Positions 51,693 through 63,020 of a DNA stretch of 64,000 nucleotides are shown here, in pieces. Below the pieces are notes generated by a model. It did not search any database. It saw nothing but the letters and a program-made list of their open reading frames with translations, and was not told the DNA's origin. The stretch's first letter is position 1, and the number at the start of each line of letters is the position of its first letter. The stretch spans positions 3,552,001 through 3,616,000 of the forward strand of contig OZ241869.1 in the NCBI GenBank assembly GCA_965202805.1, written 5' to 3'. Source of the DNA: Longimicrobiales bacterium. GTDB lineage: Bacteria; Gemmatimonadota; Gemmatimonadetes; Longimicrobiales; Gaopeijiaceae. A program made the translations under genes and the position numbers.

Positions 51693-52901
51693 CTACCGGT
51701 CCGGGCCGATCCTCCTCACCACCATCTTCCCGACGGGGTCCTGCGCCACCACCAGGTCGGCGGCTACGCCCGGACCGATCCGCGCGCTTCCGTCCGCGGC
51801 GCGATGCCCCTCGCCGGCGACGACGAACAGTCCGTCGGCTGCAATCACTTCATGGGCTTCCTCGTCCGCCAGGTCGCCCACCTCCACGATGGTCGGGCCC
51901 GACCGCGTCAGGGGGTCGTCGTACTCGATGAGCACGTCGGCCACCGTCGGCGGAAGGCCCGGCGCGATGAGCGTCCCCCCGGCGAGCAGGAGGTCGCTCA
52001 CCATGCGCCCGTTCGGAGGCAGGCCGTCGTAGAGGGCGAGGTCGACCTCCGCGTAGCTGCCGTCGGCGATCGCGGCGAGCGCCGAGAGGATGCCGACGAA
52101 GTTCGCCATGCGCAGATGCTGCTTCTGCGGATCGCCCGGCCATCCTCCGGATTCGATCAGGATCGTGCTCGCGCCCCATGCCCCCATGAGGTCGCCGAAG
52201 GCCCGCCGGTTGAAGGCGTCGTCGTAGCGCGTGACGTGGCCGCCGACCAGTGGCTCGACCGCCCTGCTCACCACCGCGCAAACGCGCATGGCCGCGCGCC
52301 GCCTCTCGCTGATCTCGCCGTCGTCACTGTGGGCCGGCGCCAGGAGCGCGATGGCCGCCATGCGGTCAGAGTCCCGGACGCGAAAACGCGGGCTCTGGTC
52401 GTGCAGGTTGAAGCCGAACTCGGGCCGTACCCGGTCGTGCACCGCCTTCAGCGCGCGCCCTTCGGGCGTGGCGAGGCGTCGGGCATCCCGGTTCACGTCG
52501 ATCCCGGCCGCGTTGTGGCGCTGAAACCGGGCTGCGCCGTCGGGGTTGAGCATGGGAACGAAATGCAGGCTCAGGCGGCGGGAAAGCGCCCGAACCAGAG
52601 CGTGCTCCGGGTGCCGGGCCAGAAACGAGAAGATGTCCGCCAGCGCCATGGTCGCGGTGCTTTCGTCCCCGTGCATCTGGGACCACGCCAGCACCCCCAC
52701 CTCACCCTCGCCGAACGACACCATGCGGAGCGGCCGTCCCTCGGCGCTCTCGCCCACTCTCTCGCACGCCAGCGCCGCGCTGCCGTCGAGGATGGGGTCG
52801 AGGACGTTCCAGTAGGCATCGGGACCGAAGCGTCGCCGGTCGAGCCCGCTCACGCGCGCGATGTCATGGAGTGCGCGCAGCTCCGTGGTGAGTTTCGGCA
52901 C
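51693..52901 (-). CDS. M14 zinc carboxypeptidase-like protein
   Basis: MHGDE, MLNPDG, DVNRD, FNLHDQ, LIESGG. Confidence 0.85.
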   Translation of the reverse strand: MPKLTTELRALHDIARVSGLDRRRFGPDAYWNVLDPILDGSAALACERVGESAEGRPLRMVSFGEGEVGVLAWSQMHGDESTATMALADIFSFLARHPEHALVRALSRRLSLHFVPMLNPDGAARFQRHNAAGIDVNRDARRLATPEGRALKAVHDRVRPEFGFNLHDQSPRFRVRDSDRMAAIALLAPAHSDDGEISERRRAAMRVCAVVSRAVEPLVGGHVTRYDDAFNRRAFGDLMGAWGASTILIESGGWPGDPQKQHLRMANFVGILSALAAIADGSYAEVDLALYDGLPPNGRMVSDLLLAGGTLIAPGLPPTVADVLIEYDDPLTRSGPTIVEVGDLADEEAHEVIAADGLFVVAGEGHRAADGSARIGPGVAADLVVAQDPVGKMVVRRIGPDR

Positions 52902-54040
52902 CGGCTGGGCTCTTCGAAATCGGTTCTCGATAGGGGATGCCGGGGCTGACCCGTAGGTTGTCGAACGGCAGGCGCTGAATAATGGCGGCATCTTCGCCGC
53001 GCTGTCCAGGCGCCGACGCGGGCCCGGCGCGTGCCCCGCTCTTGGTTCTCTCCGACCGCCCGACCCGAGCGTTGACCCGAGGTCCATTACCCCGGGGACT
53101 CGCTGACCGGCACCATTCGCGGCCCTGCCGCTGTCAGGATTCGGGGTGCTCAAACGTTGTAGGTGAGTGGAGAACGCACCTTGAACGCAAACGGGAGTGG
53201 GAGGATGACCGGGATGTTATGGACGACTGATTCGACAGGAAGGGTCTCAAGGACCATCAGCCCCGTGGGCGGCTGATGATCGCGGTGCTCGCCTCCGAGA
53301 GCGCGTGGGCGGAGATACAGGCGGTTGCCGGTGACCGCCGGTGTATCCTGGCGGGGGATCAGGACGAGCTCTTGCGGCTAGCCGGTGACGCCGACGCAGT
53401 CGTAATCGAAGCCGAGAATCTCCTGCCAGTTCTTTCCGCCGTTCGACACATCAATCGGGCACATCCGCTCCTGCCCGTCATTCTCATCACCGGCCAGGAC
53501 TCAGCCGACTTTCGGCACCTCGCCTCAGTCTCCGTCGAGGCCGTTCTCCTTCGGCACCAGATCGCCGCACGTCTCCCAGTCGCGCTGAGGAGCTCGGCCG
53601 GAATCGTCTTCCGGCTTCGAGCGCTCGGAGAGGGATGCATGAGGAATGAGTCGATCCCGTCACCACTTCGTCGCTTGCTGAATTGTGCCCTGACCAGCGT
53701 GCCGCCACCCCTTACGGTCCAGCACTTGGCTCGTCTCCTGCATTCCGATCCATCCACGATCCGTCGGCACTGGCGTCGCGGTGTCAATTCTCACGGGATC
53801 CAGCGGGTCAAGGACCTGTTGGATTGGATCACTCTACTGCACGCGCTCTCGGCGCAGCACCCGAACCTAAGCTGGCGGTGTGTGGCCAGGAGCATCGGTA
53901 CACACGAGAGGACGCTGAGACGCCTAGCCAACCGTTGCGCTGGCGGCACGCTCGGTTCTCTCGGCGCCAACGGTGTCGAACAGCTGCTTGAGTGCTTCGC
54001 GACGGCCCTTGCGGACTCATTCTGCACGAAATTGCGCTGA
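52468..54040. repeat. 1.6-kb direct duplication, copy 1
   Basis: Colinear with 58865-60443 (M14 5' end, intergenic region, regulator). Confidence 0.92.
53276..54040 (+). CDS. Transcriptional regulator: receiver-like N-terminus plus two HTH motifs (AraC-like), copy 1
   Basis: PLLPVILIT receiver-like strand; TVQHLARLLHSDPSTIRRHW and SWRCVARSIGTHERTLRR. Confidence 0.7.
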   Translation: MIAVLASESAWAEIQAVAGDRRCILAGDQDELLRLAGDADAVVIEAENLLPVLSAVRHINRAHPLLPVILITGQDSADFRHLASVSVEAVLLRHQIAARLPVALRSSAGIVFRLRALGEGCMRNESIPSPLRRLLNCALTSVPPPLTVQHLARLLHSDPSTIRRHWRRGVNSHGIQRVKDLLDWITLLHALSAQHPNLSWRCVARSIGTHERTLRRLANRCAGGTLGSLGANGVEQLLECFATALADSFCTKLR

Positions 54041-54164: not shown

Positions 54165-54584
54165 CGGTGGGCAGGTCAAGGACCGGATGATTTCCTTTTT
54201 GGCGGCCTTACGGGTGCGGTGGGTCGGGGACATTCTTTGGTTGGCCGACCTCAAACGGATCCAGCGTATCGTCACGGACGAGCGTGTTCAGGACCAGGTC
54301 ATCCAGGGCCGCTCATAGGCCAGGCGGTCCGGCAACCGCCTGAGCCCCCGCGGATCGTGCGACAACCGCTTCACCAGCGTCGACTCCCGCACGCCCTCCG
54401 GAAGCACCGCCATCATCACGCTGTCCTTGTGGACATCCATCCCGACGTACACCTTGGCCCTGTTCTTCATGGGGCCGGTCTCCTGTTCCGGTTGCGACCT
54501 CAAGCGTCGCATGTGGCTTTGGCACCTCCGCTCACCGCAGGCGCTAACCCACGGTAAGTCGGCAGGCCGGCCCTTTCCATGTTT
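54165..54584 (-). mobile_element. Internally deleted IS110-family element
   Basis: MKNRAKVYVGMDVHKDS recombinase N-terminus (ATG at 54470) ends after about 60 codons; structured leader upstream; TTGACC near the other end. Confidence 0.75.
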
Positions 54585-55934
54585 CTAGTCGGGCGAAGGC
54601 CACTCGACCTCGAATCTTGCTATGTACTGGACGTCAAACTCGTCCCTGACCACGGCCCAGATTGTATCACCCCTGAAGTAGGGATCGGTTCTCCCAGGGT
54701 AGGGGTTTGCGTCCCAGGTCTCAGGTGTATTGACGTGACCGATCCAGCGACCGTGTGTGTCAAAAACATCGAAGCCGTCCGTTGGATTCCAGTAGGTCCA
54801 GAACCGCCGCGACAGTATGCGCTCACCCCCGGGCTGCTGCCGCAGATAACGCTGTTCCTCGTCGGTCCAAGGGCGGCTCCAGCCCGGAACTCCTGGCCAG
54901 GCCCACAATCGGCCCTCGTCGGTGATCCAGAGTCGAAGGAACGCGGGACGCCCCCGCGGAAGGATCGTAGTCGGAGGAATCGGTCTGGATTGGCCTGCGC
55001 GTCCAAGCTGCGCGAGAGTTTCGTTATCACTGCGCCGACCTAGGTTCTGAATCCGGAACCCGTCAGACCAATACTCATGCTCGTCCTCCGTTCTCATCGG
55101 CGGCTCCCACGCTCTCGCGAGCCGGGTCATTCCGGCATCCGGCCGGATGAGGTTGATCGCGTAGCTGGCAGAGCACCCGAAGGCCAATGCGCCCGGTCGA
55201 TTCCGCGACCATTGCGCGAAGGGCATGTGGGGGAGCCGGTTATCCTCCATGAACCCTCCGGAGTATTGCGGAAGTCGCCGCTCGCAACCGTCCCAGGCTC
55301 GAGTTGGCAGAAACACAGTGTCCGTCACCTCTTCGTGGCCGATCAGCCTGCCGAACAATGGTCTCTGCAGAGTGCCCGCGGAGCCGCTCCGCGGGGGGTT
55401 GAGCGCGATCCAGAGTTGACCGTCATCGTCCCATCGGATGGCGTCCCGTCCGTATCCGGGTCTTCCTGCCGACGGACTCAGTCTGATCTCCCGGACTAGG
55501 GTGCCATCGGGCGAAAAGGCATTGACGCGCCGATTGCCCAAGTCCAGCACGGCCAGCAGTCCGTCGGCGGAGAGGTCCATGCCGATCACGGACCTCACCT
55601 CGCCGGGTCCTTGGCCCCGGCGAGCGATCGTCCTGACGTATGTGCCGTTCGCATCGAAGTGTCGAAGATTACCACGATCGGCGACAAAGACACTTCCGTC
55701 CGGGCCGACAGTAAACATCGGCGCCCCGCTTATCAGGTACTCAGGCGGACCCTCCACCATGCCAATTCGCGATACCTCACGAAGGGACGCCGTGCCTCGA
55801 AGGGGCGAGGACGAGAATACGAACGTGGTGTCACCCAGCTGGCGCGACCAGCCCAGCGGTGACGAGCTCGGGGTTCCGGCGTCACATCCGACTGCCACAA
55901 GCGTCGTGAGAACCATTGCCGATGCGCGACTCAT
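54585..55934 (-). CDS. 6-bladed beta-propeller (NHL/TolB-like) lipoprotein
   Basis: Lipobox VAVGC, RRGQGPGEV, FDVFDTHGRWIG, VRDEFDVQYI. Confidence 0.8.
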   Translation of the reverse strand: MSRASAMVLTTLVAVGCDAGTPSSSPLGWSRQLGDTTFVFSSSPLRGTASLREVSRIGMVEGPPEYLISGAPMFTVGPDGSVFVADRGNLRHFDANGTYVRTIARRGQGPGEVRSVIGMDLSADGLLAVLDLGNRRVNAFSPDGTLVREIRLSPSAGRPGYGRDAIRWDDDGQLWIALNPPRSGSAGTLQRPLFGRLIGHEEVTDTVFLPTRAWDGCERRLPQYSGGFMEDNRLPHMPFAQWSRNRPGALAFGCSASYAINLIRPDAGMTRLARAWEPPMRTEDEHEYWSDGFRIQNLGRRSDNETLAQLGRAGQSRPIPPTTILPRGRPAFLRLWITDEGRLWAWPGVPGWSRPWTDEEQRYLRQQPGGERILSRRFWTYWNPTDGFDVFDTHGRWIGHVNTPETWDANPYPGRTDPYFRGDTIWAVVRDEFDVQYIARFEVEWPSPD

Positions 55935-56062
55935 AGCTCCTCCTGCATTTGTCCAGGGACTCCTTTAGCACGATGCGAAGCGGCAGAGCGGCTTGTCAAA
56001 CCGAGACGCGTCGCAAGGAGAAAGATCCGGGCACATTGCTAGCCGGAGCGCAGCAGACCCCT

Positions 56063-57253
56063 TCAAGAAACCGGCAATGCCGCACTGTGACAACTGGATT
56101 GCTCCGCGGCATCACGGGAAAACGGACTCTTATACGCGAACACAACGGTGTCCCGTTCACCGGGCAGCACGACAGATGCGAAGAGATGGTCGAGTGTGGC
56201 AGCCAGCGCGCGAATCTGGGCAACACCTAGATCGAACGCACGGTATGCCGTCCCATCCGAAGCCATGGTTCCGAGGATCGGTGTCCGGTCCTCCCGAAAC
56301 TGTTCAACAAAGAAGTTGCCCTCCGGGTCCATCGTAAAGCTGTCCGCGTGCCGTGCCGCCGCAACCGCCGTCTCTCCTGCAATACCGTCTCGCAAGACGA
56401 TGCTCGGAGGATCCATCTCGAAGAAGAGCGGCAACGCGTGGGAGGCAACTGCCGACGACTCGGCCTCCGAGAGATCGTACGCGAAGAGGCGCCCATCGAC
56501 GCGTCGCAGCGTCCACAAAGTCTTGCCCCGAACGAGAAAGTCACCTAGGCTGAGGGCCCCCACATACTCGGGTCCTCCAGACCTGACTACCTCACCCAGG
56601 TAGCGCTTGAGCCGCCCGTCGCTTCCCCACACTCGTACGATGCCTGGATAGTCGGCTAGGGTCCCCCTCCACAGTGGTTGCTCGATCAACGCGCCACTCG
56701 AGTCGAGGGCAATGCGATTCGCGGCAATCAGGTTGCTCCCCTCACGTTGGATAGGGATCTCCATCATCGAGAGCAGGCGGCCTTCGGTGTCGACGCGAAC
56801 CACCCTACCTTGGCCTCGATCGCTCACGGCGACGATATCTGGGGTCACGGCCTCCAAGTCGCTCAGATCCGTAACGAGCGGTGTCTCACGACCGCCCAGA
56901 AAAACGCTCTGTGCGTACGCCGCACGGGAACCGCGGAACCAGTGAATTGCGATGTCCGAGGCGTCCCCAATCACGACCGTGCAAGCCGGAACGCCGAACA
57001 CCGCCAGAGCAACCGCACTCCGCATCCGGAAGGCCTCGTGCCCGGGTAGCTTCAGCTGAAAGATAGGCTCAAGATCTTCTACATCCGCAGCCGACATCGG
57101 CGTTCGGTTTCGATCGATCTCGGCAAGGACATCCTCACTCAACTGTGCGACTACGGATGGCGGAAGCTGGTCCGCACATCCTCCGACAGATGCTAGCGCC
57201 AATAGTATTGCGGTCCGTGCCGAGAGTCCATCTAGGAAGCAAGGCTTCTTCAT
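56063..57253 (-). CDS. Beta-propeller-like lipoprotein
   Basis: Lipobox VGGC; blade-like repeats VSDRGQGRVVRVDTEG, ALDSSG, TMDPEGN; ATGA overlap with the upstream gene. Confidence 0.65.
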   Translation of the reverse strand: MKKPCFLDGLSARTAILLALASVGGCADQLPPSVVAQLSEDVLAEIDRNRTPMSAADVEDLEPIFQLKLPGHEAFRMRSAVALAVFGVPACTVVIGDASDIAIHWFRGSRAAYAQSVFLGGRETPLVTDLSDLEAVTPDIVAVSDRGQGRVVRVDTEGRLLSMMEIPIQREGSNLIAANRIALDSSGALIEQPLWRGTLADYPGIVRVWGSDGRLKRYLGEVVRSGGPEYVGALSLGDFLVRGKTLWTLRRVDGRLFAYDLSEAESSAVASHALPLFFEMDPPSIVLRDGIAGETAVAAARHADSFTMDPEGNFFVEQFREDRTPILGTMASDGTAYRAFDLGVAQIRALAATLDHLFASVVLPGERDTVVFAYKSPFSRDAAEQSSCHSAALPVS

Positions 57254-57888
57254 GTTCCGGTTGGGTTAACGGACGTAACCGCGCCCACCACCGACAGCGC
57301 GGGGTCAGCAGCAATCGTACAGTCATCAAGAAACGCGGACGCAGGCAACAGCCTACGTTCACTGCCTGCGTCAACCACAACGCCGCGACGGTCCATCACG
57401 AGATGAAGAGGTGAATGAGATAAGCCGGCGCTGCCGATGAAATCGACTTTGTCACGAACGTAGAAGGTCGGAGACGGGAAGGCCGGATCGAAGAGGTCAT
57501 CCCGTCCCGTAACCTCCTCCGCGGCAACCCAGAAAGCCTGCCATCCGTCCGGCATGCTGTCACCGGCCGGATCGTTGAGGGCAGTGGACATCCAGCGATA
57601 CGCTGCCGTCCTGGCGTAGGGGCAGGTGCGAGTCCCGATGACTATATAGCGGCACTTGCCGGCCCCAACATCGCTCAGACTCTGAACCGTCCCGTTCTCG
57701 TCCGATACAACCAGCGCGTCCACAGGTCGACCCACCGCAGGCGTTGCGGTTGACATTGCCTCCTGTATCTGCCGTGCCTCTCGGCCTTCCGCCCATGCCT
57801 CTACACCGTAACTTGCGATGCCGGCGACGAGAAGTACCGCAATGGCATCCAATATTCGCGCCTTTGACAACCTACTGATCTGTGTCAT
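57250..57888 (-). CDS. Membrane-anchored thioredoxin/TlpA-like protein (CxxA)
   Basis: N-terminal TM helix, DENGTVQSL, TCPYA, cis-Pro-like SPLHLVMDRRGVV. Confidence 0.55.
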   Translation of the reverse strand: MTQISRLSKARILDAIAVLLVAGIASYGVEAWAEGREARQIQEAMSTATPAVGRPVDALVVSDENGTVQSLSDVGAGKCRYIVIGTRTCPYARTAAYRWMSTALNDPAGDSMPDGWQAFWVAAEEVTGRDDLFDPAFPSPTFYVRDKVDFIGSAGLSHSPLHLVMDRRGVVVDAGSERRLLPASAFLDDCTIAADPALSVVGAVTSVNPTGT

Positions 57889-58118
57889 GAATGATGGTCC
57901 CCCATTCAGGGTCGCACTCGTTTGTGTTGATTGACGGACGACACTGGACCCTCGACACCGCCGCCCTTGGGCAAGACATCAAGTCCGTGCCGAGGCGATG
58001 TGTACGACAGCCGACCTTTGACCGGCAGCACCGCCCGACTTCTTGAAGCCCTAGGAACTCCCCCGCGGGCCATTTGAGGGACGCTAGCGTTCTAGACGAC
58101 TACACGAACGCAGGCGCC

Positions 58119-58331
58119 TCATTCGTCGCAATCGGCATCATTCCCGTCCTCGCAGCACGCATACGACATCGCGGTGCAGGCGAGACCCGTACAATACCAG
58201 CCGCTGCTCGAAATCCCGCATGAGTACACGGGGGGGATTGCTGCGGTCGCTAGCCTTGGTACCCAAAGCGCGAGATTCCCGGCGAGGAGCGCCAGGACGA
58301 CAGGAAGCCGAAGCAGTAGTGCGCGAGACAT
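58119..58331 (-). CDS. Small secreted six-cysteine peptide, 70 aa
   Basis: AAGGAGG RBS; MSRALLLRLPVVLALLAGNLALWVPRLATA|AIPPVYSCGISSSGWYCTGLACTAMSYACCEDGNDADCDE. Confidence 0.75.
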   Translation of the reverse strand: MSRALLLRLPVVLALLAGNLALWVPRLATAAIPPVYSCGISSSGWYCTGLACTAMSYACCEDGNDADCDE

Positions 58332-58448
58332 GATCCCTCCTTGGAGTGAACGCAGTAGTTTGTGTGAAGGCGGACGCCCAGTACATCCAGCAGGAGTTCC
58401 CGCCACCAGTACCTGTAAATCTATCTGAGCGAGCCGCGAGGATACAGT

Positions 58449-58482
58449 GACAATTTCGCGCATTTTAGGACAAATCCGCGCA
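58449..58482 (-). promoter_or_regulatory. Tandem 14-bp direct repeat (20-bp period), putative activator site
   Basis: GACAATTTCGCGCA-N6-GACAAATCCGCGCA upstream of the peptide gene. Confidence 0.5.
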
Positions 58483-58529
58483 CAATGAGTTCCGAAGAGA
58501 CTCAACGAAGCACTCGAGTAGTCGCTCGG

Positions 58530-58863
58530 CACCGGCGGTGCAGCGCCGCCTCCAGCCGCGCGTCGTCCAGGTCGTCCGGCAGCGGCCAGGACACTCCCGC
58601 CTTCCGCGCCTGCCGGACATAGCTGCCGACCGTGCTGTGGGAGATCCGGAGGATGGCCCCGATCTCCCGGTGGCTCCGGCCGAGTCCGTACTTCAGCCGG
58701 AGAACATCTCGAATCTTGCACATGGACAACTTCTTCCGGGCCACCGTCTTCCTCCTCGCTCAAGGATCTCTCGCGAGGTTGGAAGAGACGAGTGGACGAA
58801 ATGAATCGGAATCAGTGGACAGCTTCCGTCGGAATGGATGGACGAAATGCGTCGGAATCAGCA
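58530..58863 (-). mobile_element. istA: IS21-family left-end remnant (truncated istA)
   Basis: LSMCKIRDVLRLK..SHREI..ISHSTV..GVSWPLP..DDARLEAAL; TG terminus with three ~23-bp TGGAC..TCGGAAT repeats at 58791-58863. Confidence 0.85.
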
Positions 58864-58864
58864 G

Positions 58865-59298
58865 GTGGCGAGGCGTCGGGCATCGCGGTTCACGTCGATC
58901 CCGGCCGCATTATGGCGCTGAAAGCGGGCCGCGCCGTCGGGGTTGAGCAAGGGAACGATATGCAGGCTCAGGCGGCGGGACAGCGCCCGGACCAGGCCGT
59001 GCTCCGGGTGCCGGGCCAGAAACGCGAAGAGTCCGCCAGCGCCATGGTCGCCGTGTTCTCGTCCCCGTGCATCTGGGACCAGGCGAGCACTCCCACATCA
59101 CCCTCGCCGACCGACACCATGCGGAGCGGCCGTCCCTTGGCGCTCTCTCCCACTCTCTCGCACGCCAGCGCGGCGCTGCCGCTCAGGGATGGGGTCGAGG
59201 GCGTTCGAGTAGGCCCCTGGCCCGAAGCGTCGTTAGTCGAGCCTTCTCACGCGCGCGACGTCATGGAGTGCGCTCAGCTCCGTGGTGAGTTTCGGCAC
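58865..59298 (-). pseudogene. Frameshifted, truncated second copy of the M14 peptidase 5' end
   Basis: GRPLRMVS..VLAWSQMHGDE retained but frames are broken; cut at the IS21 end. Confidence 0.85.
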
Positions 59299-59678
59299 CG
59301 GCTGGGCTCTTCAAAATCGGTTCTCGATGGGGGGAGATGCCGGGGCTGACCCGTAGGTTGTCGAACGGCAGGCGCTGAAAAAATGGCGGCATCTTCGCCG
59401 CGCCGTCCAGGCGCCGATGCGGTCGCGGGGGCAGGCCCTTCTCTCGGTCCTCTCCGACCGCCCGGCCCGATCGTTGACCCGAGGTCCATTACCTCGGCGG
59501 CTCGCTGACCGGCACCATTCGCGGCCGTGCGGCTGTCAGCTTTCGGGGTGCTCAAACGTTGTAGGTGAGTGGGAGAATGCACCTTGAACGCGAACTGGAG
59601 GAGGAGGATGACCGGGATGTTATGGATGCCTGATCCGCCGGGACGGGTCTCAAGAACTCTCAGCCCCGTCGTCGGCTG

Positions 59679-60443
59679 ATGATCGCGGTACTCGCGTCCG
59701 CGAGCGCGTGGGTGGATATACAGGCGGCTGCCGGTGACCACCGGTGTATCCTGGCGGGGGATCAGGACGAGCTCTTGCGGCTAGCCGGTGACGCCGACGC
59801 AGTCGTAATCGAAGCCGAGAATCTCCTGCCAGTTCTTTCCGCCGTTCGACACATCAATCGGGCACATCCGCTCCTGCCCGTCATTCTCATCACCGGCCAG
59901 GACTCAGCCGACTTTCGGTACCTCGCCTCAGTCTCCGTCGAGGCTGTTCTCCTTCGGCACCAGATCGCCGCACGTCTCCCAGTCGCGCTGAGGAGCTCGG
60001 CCGGAATCGTCTTCCGGCTTCGAGCGCTCGGAGAGGGATGCATGAGGAATGAGTCGATCCCGTCACCACTTCGTCGCTTGCTGAATTGTGCCCTGACCAG
60101 CGTGCCGCCACCCCTTACGGTCCAGCACTTGGCTCGTCTCCTGCATTCCGATCCATCCACGATCCGTCGGCACTGGCGTCGCGGTGTCAATTCTCACGGG
60201 ATCCATCGGGTCAAGGATTTGTTGGATTGGATCATCCTGCTGCATGCGCTCTCGGCGAAGCATCCAAGCCTAAGCTGGCGGTGTGTGGCCAAGAGCATCG
60301 GAACACACGAGAGTACGCTGAGACGCCTAGCCGACCGTTGCGCTGGCGACACGCTTGGTTCTCTGGGGTCCAACGGTGTCGAGCAGCTGTTTGAGCGCTT
60401 CGCGACGGCGCTTGGGGACTCATTCTGTCCGATTTTGCGTTGA
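59679..60443 (+). CDS. Transcriptional regulator, copy 2
   Basis: 20 of 254 aa differ from copy 1 by hand count. Confidence 0.7.
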   Translation: MIAVLASASAWVDIQAAAGDHRCILAGDQDELLRLAGDADAVVIEAENLLPVLSAVRHINRAHPLLPVILITGQDSADFRYLASVSVEAVLLRHQIAARLPVALRSSAGIVFRLRALGEGCMRNESIPSPLRRLLNCALTSVPPPLTVQHLARLLHSDPSTIRRHWRRGVNSHGIHRVKDLLDWIILLHALSAKHPSLSWRCVAKSIGTHESTLRRLADRCAGDTLGSLGSNGVEQLFERFATALGDSFCPILR

Positions 60444-60563: not shown

Positions 60564-61649
60564 CTACCGCGTACCAAAGACGCGCACCTGAGGGAACGGT
60601 TCTTCGCCATAAGTGAAGATGAGCCCATCCCTCACGGAGCCGACCACTCCAACTGTGGGGTGCCGATCAATCACTCGCCCCGATGACACATCCAGGACGA
60701 TGAGCTCATGACGCCGGTTCTCCGCAGAGCGGGGGCCTTCGATTTGAAGCCCAAGCACCACGTTACCGCCACGATCCACAACGACCGACCGGCCTGAGTG
60801 CGAGAAGCCCTCTTCCGGGTCCGGACGATACCGGCAGCACACGCCGGGTCTGCTTGCCGTGAGCTGCCAGGGAACGTAGCCTTCGAGCGTCGTCTCCCAG
60901 AGTATCTCTCCCTCGGGGTCGAAGGCTCGAACCACCGGTAACATCCAATTGAACTTCACGATCGTTCCAGTAGCTTCATCGCACGCGAGGTAGCCGTAGT
61001 TGAGCATATGCGGTGTCTGCCCCAGCTCACGACGTTGGGCAGCCTCTCGCGGCTCCTCGGGGCTCGCAAAGCCCCGAATCACCTGACCGTCACTGTCGAT
61101 CTCGCTGATCGTGGGATCAGTTGGCCCTCCGGGCTGGCGCAGAACGTACCGTCGTCCTCCGAGTACACAAACGTCCGTTGGAGGGAACCTCAAAGTTGTC
61201 ACCGTCCTGAAGGCGAGAGTGTCTCCATCGAGTTCGAAGGTGCTGATCCGCCCGTTGGCGACATCCGCGACGTGAAGAACCCCTTCCGAATCGAGATCAG
61301 AGCCACGAATGCCCAGGAGCTCGCGAGGGCCCTGCCCTCGCCGCCGGTATGAAGTGATGTGACCGCCGTCTCGATCGAATACGTGAATATCGGAAGTCTG
61401 CTCCCCCAGAACGTAGACGTTGCCGGCGGCGTCTACCTCGATCGTGCGGAGAAGACCGAACACCTCAGCGTCGTCGCCGTCCAACCGTCCGATGGTCATC
61501 TGCAGATCCGCCGGCTCCCACAGCTGGGCCGTCACGGGCTCGACCAGCGGGGTGGACGCAATAGACCCGACGACGCCAAGCAGCGTGAGGGCATGACGCT
61601 CCAAGCGGAACAGGTGGGTACTACGCATACCACGCAATTGAGCACTCAT
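60564..61649 (-). CDS. 6-bladed beta-propeller secreted protein
   Basis: Signal-like N-terminus, EVDAAGNVYV, HVFDRDG, RRGQGPREL, EEPFPQVRVF. Confidence 0.8.
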   Translation of the reverse strand: MSAQLRGMRSTHLFRLERHALTLLGVVGSIASTPLVEPVTAQLWEPADLQMTIGRLDGDDAEVFGLLRTIEVDAAGNVYVLGEQTSDIHVFDRDGGHITSYRRRGQGPRELLGIRGSDLDSEGVLHVADVANGRISTFELDGDTLAFRTVTTLRFPPTDVCVLGGRRYVLRQPGGPTDPTISEIDSDGQVIRGFASPEEPREAAQRRELGQTPHMLNYGYLACDEATGTIVKFNWMLPVVRAFDPEGEILWETTLEGYVPWQLTASRPGVCCRYRPDPEEGFSHSGRSVVVDRGGNVVLGLQIEGPRSAENRRHELIVLDVSSGRVIDRHPTVGVVGSVRDGLIFTYGEEPFPQVRVFGTR

Positions 61650-61848
61650 GGGGTTACCCTCCGGATCGCGGTCTCAAGTTCCAGCGAGTCTACGACGCCA
61701 TAAGCCATTACGCCGTTTACCAGAATCGTCGGTGTCCCCTGTGCACCGAGTTCCGTGGCAGCAGCAACGTCATTTTCGATGAAAGATACCGGTGACTCGT
61801 CCGCCAGGCAAACATCGAAGGTGGCCATGTCCTGAATCCCGGCCGTCA
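61646..61848 (-). pseudogene. DsbA-family C-terminal fragment
   Basis: FDVCL..IENDVAAATELGAQGTPTILVNG; no CxxC-bearing N-terminus; ATGA-coupled to the propeller gene. Confidence 0.7.
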
Positions 61849-62074: not shown

Positions 62075-62870
62075 TTGGGTCCCAAAGTGAGCCGGATTGA
62101 GGAGAGCAAGGGTTCGAGCTTGGCGCGTCGTGTTGCGGGGTTTTCGGGTCTGGTTCTCGGTAGCCTCTTCGCAAGCTGTTCGTCCGGCGACGATCTCGTC
62201 GAACTCCGCCCTCCGCCTCCGGACACGACTCCTCGCAATATCGGAGACACGGTTCAGCGAGGGAGCTTGACGGTCACGGTGACGGCGGCTGGGGAGACAA
62301 GCCAGGCGGTTGGGGCTCTGGCGACTCCAGCCGACGGCGTGCCCCGGGCGCACGTCAGAATCCGCCGCGTCGGCGAGTCGCCGGTCGAGGTGGGGACGAC
62401 GGACTTCCTCGGGCGAGTCACCTTCACCCAGCTTCTGCCCGGCCGATATGACATTACGTCTCTTCGCCTCCTTAACGCAGAAGAAACGGCCAGGATCACC
62501 GAGGCAAACTCGGCGCTGGCGGGCATCAACGCCTTCGGGGGTGGCGGCCGCGTCCAGGTTCAGCCGCCGTCAAGCACTACGGAAGTCGCAGCGGTGGCCG
62601 GTCGCCGGGGCTCCCTGGTAATCAGCGAGATTCATGACTGGTGGCCGCGCGTCACAAGTGGCCCCACTGCACAATACACCCAGGTAACGTACGTCGAGGT
62701 GTACAACAATTCGGACACGACCGTATACCTGGACGGAAAGATCCTTGGCGAGGGGTTCTGGTTGGGAGAGCGAGCTGAGCGAGTCCTCGTTGAACAACTG
62801 CACCGATTATGAGTCCTGGCGGATCGATCTGGAGGGCGTCTGGTCGGAGAAGCACCTGCGCTTTCCACTC
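62075..62870 (+). pseudogene. DUF4876-like lipoprotein, frameshifted near 62770 and truncated
   Basis: Lipobox FASC, Ig-like domain (GTTDFLGRVTFTQLLPGRY), GSLVISEI..YVEVYNNSDTTVYLDG; continues briefly in another frame. Confidence 0.55.
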
Positions 62871-63020
62871 TTCGGCGTGGTCCTCAGCAAGATCTCCATC
62901 GTCGCTCTCGACGCCCTCGTCGCCCGGGTGATGGCCTTGGCACCCTATCGTTCGGCCCGGCGCGTCTTCTGGGTCTCCGGGGAACGGTTCCGCGCGATAT
63001 CGTCCTGAAATGCCCTGCTC

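Follow-up and report, generated by a model that had tools for sequence, protein, structure and literature searches.

The window, which is the whole analyzed stretch of 64,000 nucleotides from a Longimicrobiales bacterium, contains a four-gene cassette that recurs in many related bacteria. The small six-Cys protein of this cassette is fast-changing and predicted to be exported. With slightly more confidence than doubt, we propose that a dedicated monothiol redoxin folds this Sec-exported, acidic 40-residue peptide into a three-disulfide miniprotein and that the adjacent propeller, propA, serves as the substrate holder. The intact and likely mobile cassette would then be a folding line for disulfide miniproteins. 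The literature search returned no description of the cassette type, in agreement with the initial annotation, which had recognized no described system. The annotation had also reported no radical SAM, YcaO, lanthipeptide, or ABC exporter gene, and none of these families matched any of the 13 neighboring proteins scanned. The features of the region are as follows.

53276..54040, plus strand: intact HTH regulator, 254 aa, convergent with the cassette and a paralog of the upstream remnant
54288..54470, minus strand: fragment of an IS110 transposase, between this regulator and the 3′ end of propB
54585..55934, minus strand: propB, DUF5128-like propeller lipoprotein with a lipobox-like Cys
56063..57253, minus strand: propA, six-bladed NHL-type propeller with a lipobox-like Cys and invariant Cys91 and Cys388
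57250..57888, minus strand: membrane-anchored redoxin of predicted TlpA/DsbE fold, 212 aa, with C89-P-Y-A, presumed cis-Pro160, and extra Cys 79 and 190
58119..58331, minus strand: precursor, 70 aa, with a predicted Sec signal peptide (residues 1–30) and a 40-aa acidic six-Cys core
58336..58341, minus strand: ribosome-binding site AGGAGG of the precursor gene, kept in genome G003
58465..58533, minus strand: 3′ remnant, about 21 codons long, of the co-oriented regulator gene belonging to the cassette
58502..58861, minus strand: insertion-sequence remnant that cuts this regulator, with a 5′ piece of a presumably IS21-like transposase and terminal repeats
59679..60443, plus strand: second regulator copy, 92% identical, duplicated along with a piece of an M14 peptidase gene
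60564..61828, minus strand: second, decayed cassette with a C-terminal DsbA-like fragment (61646–61828) and a DUF5128 propeller (60564–61649)

The features originally ascribed to the 70-aa ORF were each found again on re-reading: the strong ribosome-binding site, with the ATG 4 nt after AGGAGG; the spacing C-x8-C-x4-C-x6-CC-x7-C; and an acidic segment past residue 30 with a net charge of −6 and no Lys or Arg. The signal peptide carries an Asn within its hydrophobic stretch. Its proposed end at ATA, with predicted cleavage after A-x-A at residue 30, is supported in that two orthologs would otherwise show Pro at +1. The 214-aa ORF previously called spurious starts at TTG; its tail is the precursor and its front overlaps the transposase remnant, from which the long frame arises. 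Judged from its sequence, the precursor is a real gene and more than a chance ORF, because the leader has a dN/dS of 0.27 against the G003 ortholog and 11 orthologous precursors were found. The Cys frame and the acidic core were kept in all 11, with Cys residues gained or lost in pairs, and the orthologous cores stop 2–3 residues past a DxC-like motif. Among nine cassettes of close relatives, the mean identity was 75% for the leader and 41% for the core. A public contig is identical to 54428–58596 throughout; it possibly comes from the source sample itself and is hence not independent.

The suggestion that relatives should be searched for Cys-rich ORFs was borne out: the homologous clusters encode signal-bearing peptides whose leaders and Cys frame are conserved and whose cores are hypervariable. 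A signal-bearing Cys-rich ORF was located within 3 kb of redoxin relatives at 29 of 37 loci and then at 14 of 17 additional loci; genome-wide, ORFs of this kind were about 350-fold rarer. The 69 loci examined yielded 87 peptide-like ORFs (a few of which are false calls) in 63 sequence clusters, 49 of them net acidic, and the Cys number was even in 39 of 42 cases. The close redoxin family comprises 117 protein clusters matching at E 1e-10. Propellers were detected at 18 of the 37 distant redoxin-peptide loci, a lower bound; about half of these loci are without a detected propeller, and therefore the propeller is not always needed. Redoxin-propeller fusions occur in two relatives, each in a single assembly, and that of L092 is possibly a read-through error. 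Across loci, the presence of Asn in the signal peptide goes with Gln, His, or Asn in the redoxin anchor, and the 58119–58331 locus is an exception.

The membrane-anchored, thioredoxin-like protein with CPYA in place of CxxC was present as described. The redoxin gave no Pfam or NCBIfam match. Its assignment to the TlpA/DsbE type is made from a profile match to the DsbE-like 3gl3 (E 0.0015), with the active-site motif in register; its atlas neighbors were all redoxins (0.94–0.95), and its AlphaFold model was poor and uninformative (pLDDT 43). The N-terminal anchor has a 19-residue hydropathy of 1.7, Pro160 is present in 103 of 104 family members, and the extra Cys pair 79/190 is conserved. The first active-site Cys is invariant in the family and the second was lost in 63 of 104 members, which makes an isomerase or chaperone role likelier than that of an oxidase. 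A full CxxC is present in the other 41, and the family is therefore not uniformly monothiol. The redoxin family is tied to Cys-rich peptides, in line with the earlier idea that the peptide would be folded by its own redoxin.

Both propeller lipoproteins were also found as annotated. The propA gene starts before the redoxin gene ends, with 4 nt in common. PropB scored 21.8 bits against DUF5128, for which the Pfam gathering score is 22.9 and a similar propeller of G001 scores 31.7. The genome has about 52 propeller genes, propB among them, and a peptide lies within 1 kb at only two of these loci, so that propellers mostly do something else. PAL-type amidating propellers, a class considered for propA, are characterized by three Zn-binding His residues and a catalytic Tyr and Arg.

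In the proposed mechanism, the precursor would cross the membrane and remain tethered through its signal peptide, and a general DsbA-type oxidase would supply the disulfides. Cys89 of the redoxin would attack wrong pairs to form a mixed disulfide, which would be resolved by the substrate's own thiols. PropA, whose synthesis would be coupled to that of the redoxin through the overlap, would cradle the substrate beside the active site, an arrangement modeled on the facing Trx and NHL domains of NHLRC2 and SOQ1. Signal peptidase would free the product after Ala30, and propB would probably be an accessory surface binder. Once released, the miniprotein would most likely act on an outside target, either a host or a competitor, as a diversifying ligand or inhibitor, and not as a cationic, membrane-lytic peptide. 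A bolder version, which we regard as a tentative possibility, is that the Sec signal peptide acts as a RiPP-style leader, with its buried Asn pairing with the Gln, His, or Asn of the redoxin anchor and the NHL propeller cradling the core, in a widespread, as yet undescribed assembly line. If this is true, one machine would fold unrelated scaffolds (C-C-C-CC-C, eight-Cys, and defensin-like); the Asn/Gln pattern provides a sharp two-residue test.

The propellers had been suggested to be receptors, immunity proteins, or maturation factors. In one alternative, that of a ligand with a cognate partner, the redoxin would fold the peptide and the propellers would be its specific receptors or confer immunity to it, as in a pheromone-receptor or a bacteriocin-immunity pair. 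Consistent with this are the hypervariable cores behind fixed leaders, the replacement of different cassettes by one another around a single chromosomal site within the genus, the regulator immediately upstream in G015 and G004, and the defensin-like nature of some distant partner peptides (for example L077, which scored 20.4 bits and so reached the cut-off of Pfam Defensin_2). However, propA is conserved like the redoxin (74% vs. 75%) while the cores diverge, which argues against a peptide-specific receptor or immunity protein and for a folding partner. PropA has a dN/dS of 0.23 and no hypervariable segment; propB shows 73% identity (one pair only) and a dN/dS of 0.17. A few variable contact residues in propA may be compatible with its overall conservation. 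Seven defensin-like loci (L066, L067, L077, L079, L087, L088, and L096) have no propeller near the redoxin, the cassette is without a sensor kinase, and the cores of the cassette family are acidic. We therefore consider the receptor or immunity roles doubtful, and the maturation role stands as the favored one. It is quite improbable that the miniprotein is instead a stably bound small subunit of a propeller complex, possibly via an acidic, Ca2+-binding tail resembling an LDL-receptor class A module. MauA stays on MauB after folding by MauD, a propeller, a redoxin of the MauD kind, and a small disulfide-rich protein make up a matching gene set, three distant redoxins match MauD (TIGR02661) weakly (E 8e-8 to 9e-5), and the only PDB match of the peptide-profile core is an LDL-receptor module (2kri_B). 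This match is weak (E 4.3), however, and the SDE motif and following last Cys that mark the module are missing from the orthologous cores. Moreover, none of 79 close-family redoxins matched MauD at E 0.001, no MauE or MauG neighbor was found, and a fixed subunit would be expected to change no faster than the protein it binds.

A metal-chelating function, in which the Cys- and Asp/Glu-rich peptide binds periplasmic metals and the redoxin keeps it reduced, is very unlikely. Bufferins and metallothioneins are the relevant comparison, and the six Cys residues, the negative charge, the prevalence of acidic clusters, and the frequent reductase function of TlpA-type folds are consistent with it; the even Cys counts and paired Cys changes, however, fit disulfides, and rapid core change has no evident reason in a metal sponge. 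In regards to expression, a "dedicated regulator" had been noted next to the cluster. An intact regulator is indeed present (53276–54040), but it is convergent and one copy of a duplication spaced at 6.4 kb, and upstream of the peptide the regulator belonging to the cassette is reduced to about 21 codons; for this reason the 54585–58331 copy may be silent. A 53-codon regulator remnant occupies the same place upstream of the peptide in G003. The remnant at 58502..58861 matched an IS21 profile weakly (E 8e-4) and an IS66 accessory profile at E 4e-11. The copy could accordingly be a passenger stranded between the insertion-sequence remnants on both sides and decaying like the cassette at 60564–61828, for which no peptide gene was found and to which a remnant in G018 is similar. 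Decayed cassettes at the site in G001 and G018 and the patchy distribution of the close family (2 of 19 genomes of the genus, single-protein query) agree with this explanation. We nevertheless judge it rather unlikely, given that the four genes are intact with dN/dS values of 0.17–0.4, that the DNA from the remnant to the ribosome-binding site is conserved with G003, and that two intact regulator paralogs within 6 kb could act in trans.

To our knowledge, disulfide-rich miniproteins are thought to be rare in bacteria, and they escape genome-mining tools because their loci carry no tailoring enzyme as a marker. The redoxin family is a usable marker for such loci, as the yield of peptide-like ORFs indicates. 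Should the redoxin and the propeller recognize the leader and in this way fold diverse cores, they would serve as a tool in the production of disulfide-rich peptides and as a tractable model of the Trx-NHL pair.

The cassette resembles several known systems in part. The mauBEDA genes of methylamine dehydrogenase encode a propeller subunit, MauE, the MauD redoxin, and a disulfide-rich small subunit, and there too an exported redoxin is devoted to a single small, disulfide-rich protein whose gene lies next to that of a propeller. In contrast, the cassette has no MauD equivalog and no MauE or MauG neighbor, its propeller has six blades, and its 40-aa product is hypervariable and not a conserved enzyme subunit. 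The Bacteroidota clusters of NVEALA (PF14055) and DUF5128 six-bladed propellers place small exported Cys-bearing proteins near propellers and redoxins, and propB is DUF5128-like; none of 11 precursors matched NVEALA at E up to 1, no paper on these clusters was found, and the clusters themselves are uncharacterized. Some peptides of distant redoxin loci are similar to actinodefensins and CS-alpha-beta defensins (NF038042, PF01097; L077 at the cut-off, L080 weakly), whereas the cassette peptide is acidic, is without CxxxC...CxC, and matches neither family. The redoxin resembles the exported thioredoxins TlpA, DsbE, and ResA in its fold, its membrane anchor, the N-terminal Cys of its active site, and a presumed cis-Pro, but it is without their second active-site Cys, has an extra, invariant Cys pair, and is tied to peptide genes. 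Clusters of bufferins and MNIO-modified peptides include a DUF692 enzyme; neither DUF692/MNIO nor DoxX was found among the 13 window proteins or the 84 of 189 neighbor proteins scanned. A similar architecture is that of human NHLRC2 and Arabidopsis SOQ1, in which, like in the cassette, an NHL propeller (six-bladed) lies alongside a Trx domain that is TlpA-like and has an atypical active site. The available portions of the reports place the redox motif at the Trx-propeller interface in both proteins (PMC6107167; 10.1101/2021.03.16.435614), give it as CC(I/V)NC (PMC6107167), and mention no known substrate for human NHLRC2. The redoxin has CPYA, and CC(I/V)NC is absent from the commonest 40 motifs listed for the 104 family members. 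NHLRC2 and SOQ1 are each one chain, whereas the cassette uses two overlapping genes and fusions occur only in relatives. If the leader-reading version of our proposal is true, the cassette peptides would be the first natural substrate class for this Trx-plus-NHL architecture.

The four genes claimed by the initial annotation were all present, all on the minus strand. The cassette and the regulators near it are as follows.

58119–58331, minus strand, precursor peptide (70 aa)
57250–57888, minus strand, redoxin (212 aa)
56063–57253, minus strand, propeller lipoprotein propA
54585–55934, minus strand, propeller lipoprotein propB
53276–54040, convergent with the cassette, intact regulator
59679–60443, second regulator copy, duplicated with a piece of an M14 peptidase gene

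The strong RBS of the precursor is AGGAGG, four bases ahead of the ATG. As described initially, the product contains six Cys with a spacing of 8-4-6-0-7 and no Lys or Arg beyond residue 30; its net charge is −6. The gene is indeed concealed by a 214-aa ORF, part of which coincides with a transposase remnant. The redoxin and propA genes share four bases, the end of the first and the start of the second. One public contig, possibly from the source sample, matched 54428–58596 letter for letter. None of the 13 neighbouring proteins matched radical SAM, YcaO, lanthipeptide or ABC families, in agreement with the earlier reading. All four genes were found in the same order in G003, a genome of the same genus.

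The precursor is a real, diversifying gene. A profile built from two precursors (window and G003) retrieved ten proteins, including the window's own. Mining of relatives for short Cys-rich ORFs, the check proposed at the outset, gave 11 aligned precursors with an almost fixed leader, a retained Cys frame and fast-changing cores; five Cys were invariant, the sixth lay near the same place, and one additional Cys pair occurred in 3 of the 11. Acidic cores were seen in all 11 precursors checked (net charge −4 to −9). The mean pairwise identities in nine cassettes, in seven of which the genes were assigned to one cassette solely through contigs of equal size, were 75% for leaders and 41% for cores (36 pairs each), 75% for redoxins (21 pairs) and 74% for propA (28 pairs). 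The genes are under purifying selection, with dN/dS values against G003 of 0.27 (leader), 0.26 (redoxin), 0.23 (propA) and 0.17 (propB); the value for the core was 0.38 with dS near saturation, which indicates fast change only and makes no case for positive selection. The predicted signal cleavage after Ala30 is supported by two orthologs in which a cut after residue 31 would place Pro at +1.

Peptide and redoxin form the constant core of the loci, which often, though not always, include a propeller. In the seven closest loci (own, G003, G234, G241, G165, G206 and L004), a propA-like gene directly followed the redoxin (7/7), and each contained one or two signal-bearing Cys-rich ORFs. Of 401 genomes from the order, 45 matched a wider redoxin profile. 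Forty of 44 weaker matches in new regions were taken as a second set; of the other four, three were already among the collected loci and one was omitted. A script called the redoxin in 37 of the 40, and the three dropped loci also carry peptides. Among these 37, a peptide lay within 3 kb of the redoxin in 29 and within 1 kb in 27, a propeller was detected in 18, and both occurred in 16. The third set comprised 17 loci, two of them near-identical and 14 belonging to other families of the class; peptides lay within 3 kb at 14 loci and within 1 kb at 13, propellers were detected at 11, and two of the three peptide misses sit at contig ends. These counts come from kin genomes, and peptides were called by our simple filter (hydropathy and a Cys rule), by which ORF density per 10 kb was 5.4 up to 1 kb from the redoxin versus 0.015 across the own genome. 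The Cys count was even in 39 of 42 peptide ORFs. Six other thioredoxin-fold matches in the own genome all lacked peptides and propellers up to 3 kb away.

At distant loci in genomes of family f2 (L066, L067, L077, L079, L080, L087, L088 and L096), the redoxin stands beside one to several defensin-like or eight-Cys precursors, as many as three of them in tandem; the L077 peptide reaches the Pfam Defensin_2 cut-off, L080 weakly matches actinodefensin, and no propeller was detected near the redoxin at the defensin-like loci. Fusions occur directly downstream of a Cys-rich peptide gene: DsbA-propeller at L097:4827–6596 (G015) and redoxin-propeller at L092:5345–7048 (G224).

Other arrangements were also observed. 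The own genome contains about 52 such propeller genes, including five tandem lipoprotein paralogs without peptide or redoxin (C1 3904817–3911028). A second peptide locus outside the window (C1 3126929–3130455) has two signal-bearing precursors, one with 4 Cys and one with 6, alongside a propeller, a permease and an ABC ATPase, and lacks a redoxin. A conserved 12-member peptide family with 7–8 Cys, transcribed divergently from the redoxin (L024, L025, L057, L059, L060, L062, L068, L070, L074, L075, L089 and L091), appears to share an operon with genes for a membrane protein, for an ECF sigma factor (Pfam match in L024) and for a likely anti-sigma factor, and may be a signalling module. L061 and L083 combine the redoxin with an ABC transporter and a C39 peptidase domain that stands alone, and both precursors at L083 carry paired CxxC-like motifs.

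The redoxin had no match in Pfam or NCBIfam. Its atlas neighbours were redoxins without exception, and its family profile aligned to a DsbE-like structure (E 0.0015) with CPYA in register at the CxxC position, which bears out the replacement noted before. Across 104 full-length family sequences, chiefly 50%-cluster representatives, the first active-site Cys was invariant, the cis-Pro position was conserved in 103, and 100 had an extra Cys pair; the second active-site position was Ser in 52, Cys in 41, Ala in 6 and Gly in 5. Some clusters contain DsbA-like genes (L004, L089; a fragment at 61646–61828 in the window). Further along the window, a lamin-tail/carboxypeptidase-regulatory-domain gene (62075–63008), apparently split into two frames near 62800, adjoins further exported-protein genes.

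Asn occurred within the signal-peptide hydrophobic stretch in 29 of 63 peptide clusters versus 5 of 553 secreted-like proteins encoded by the own genome, and Gln, His or Asn in the redoxin anchor (the N-terminal membrane helix) in 72 of 95 family members versus 75 of 597 controls. With both patterns defined post hoc on known sequences, 25 loci had both, 13 neither and 7 were discordant (14, 6 and 4 by 40% clusters). On a tree of soluble domains (42/45), explaining the double-negative state took four changes, of which strong branches force two or more, and two sufficed for the Asn-only state; the link therefore rests on few independent events. The window lineage is an exception, retaining leader Asn19 with Tyr27 in the anchor; anchor position 14 is Asp or Glu in 10 of 10 close orthologs. 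This association is a lead, not a result.

The regulator had been called dedicated. Its family is linked to such cassettes, whereas the adjacent intact copy is convergent and duplicated, and the cassette's own upstream regulator has been lost. The duplicated segments, containing the M14 piece and the regulator (52468–53468 and 58865–59871 onward), lie 6.4 kb from each other and share about 90% identity. A co-oriented remnant of the family lies immediately upstream of the peptide in the window and G003. Among 14 regions fetched within the genus, the regulator was upstream of a peptide-propeller set in G015 and G004 and convergent with a different peptide-redoxin set in G017, decayed propeller remnants lay at the M14 site in G001 and G018, and nine distant paralogs had no peptides. 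In G001, G017 and G018, the stretch between M14 and GH3 is occupied by IS remnants together with cassettes that differ from this one or have decayed. Cassette genes had a GC3 of 0.63–0.70 and dS to G003 of 0.7–1.0, versus 0.88–0.95 and 0.2–0.27 for three nearby housekeeping genes, which points to horizontal exchange.

In thioredoxin chemistry, a lone N-terminal Cys allows disulfide shuffling and mixed-disulfide substrate holding, not disulfide donation. We lean slightly towards a joint reading in which the peptide would be exported with three disulfides, the redoxin would act as an isomerase or chaperone, propA would serve as a substrate cradle, and the product would have an outside target. 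That the propellers are instead cognate receptors or immunity proteins of the peptide appears unlikely. The peptide is very unlikely to stay bound as a small subunit in the manner of mauBEDA, or to be an acidic module resembling that of the LDL receptor, for which the PDB match reached only E 4.3, and a metal-binding role is highly improbable. On a separate axis, the window cassette could be a silent copy, which we regard as quite unlikely; its genes are intact.

Full-text literature searches gave no description of such a cassette among the matches listed. By membership tests, the cassette falls outside NHLRC2/SOQ1, mau, NVEALA, the defensins and the bufferins. The leader-anchor and cradle model, which we advance tentatively, would if true make this a peptide assembly line of a new class. 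Among known systems, the cassette resembles a dedicated-oxidoreductase system, of which MauD is an example, combined with a Trx-NHL pair.
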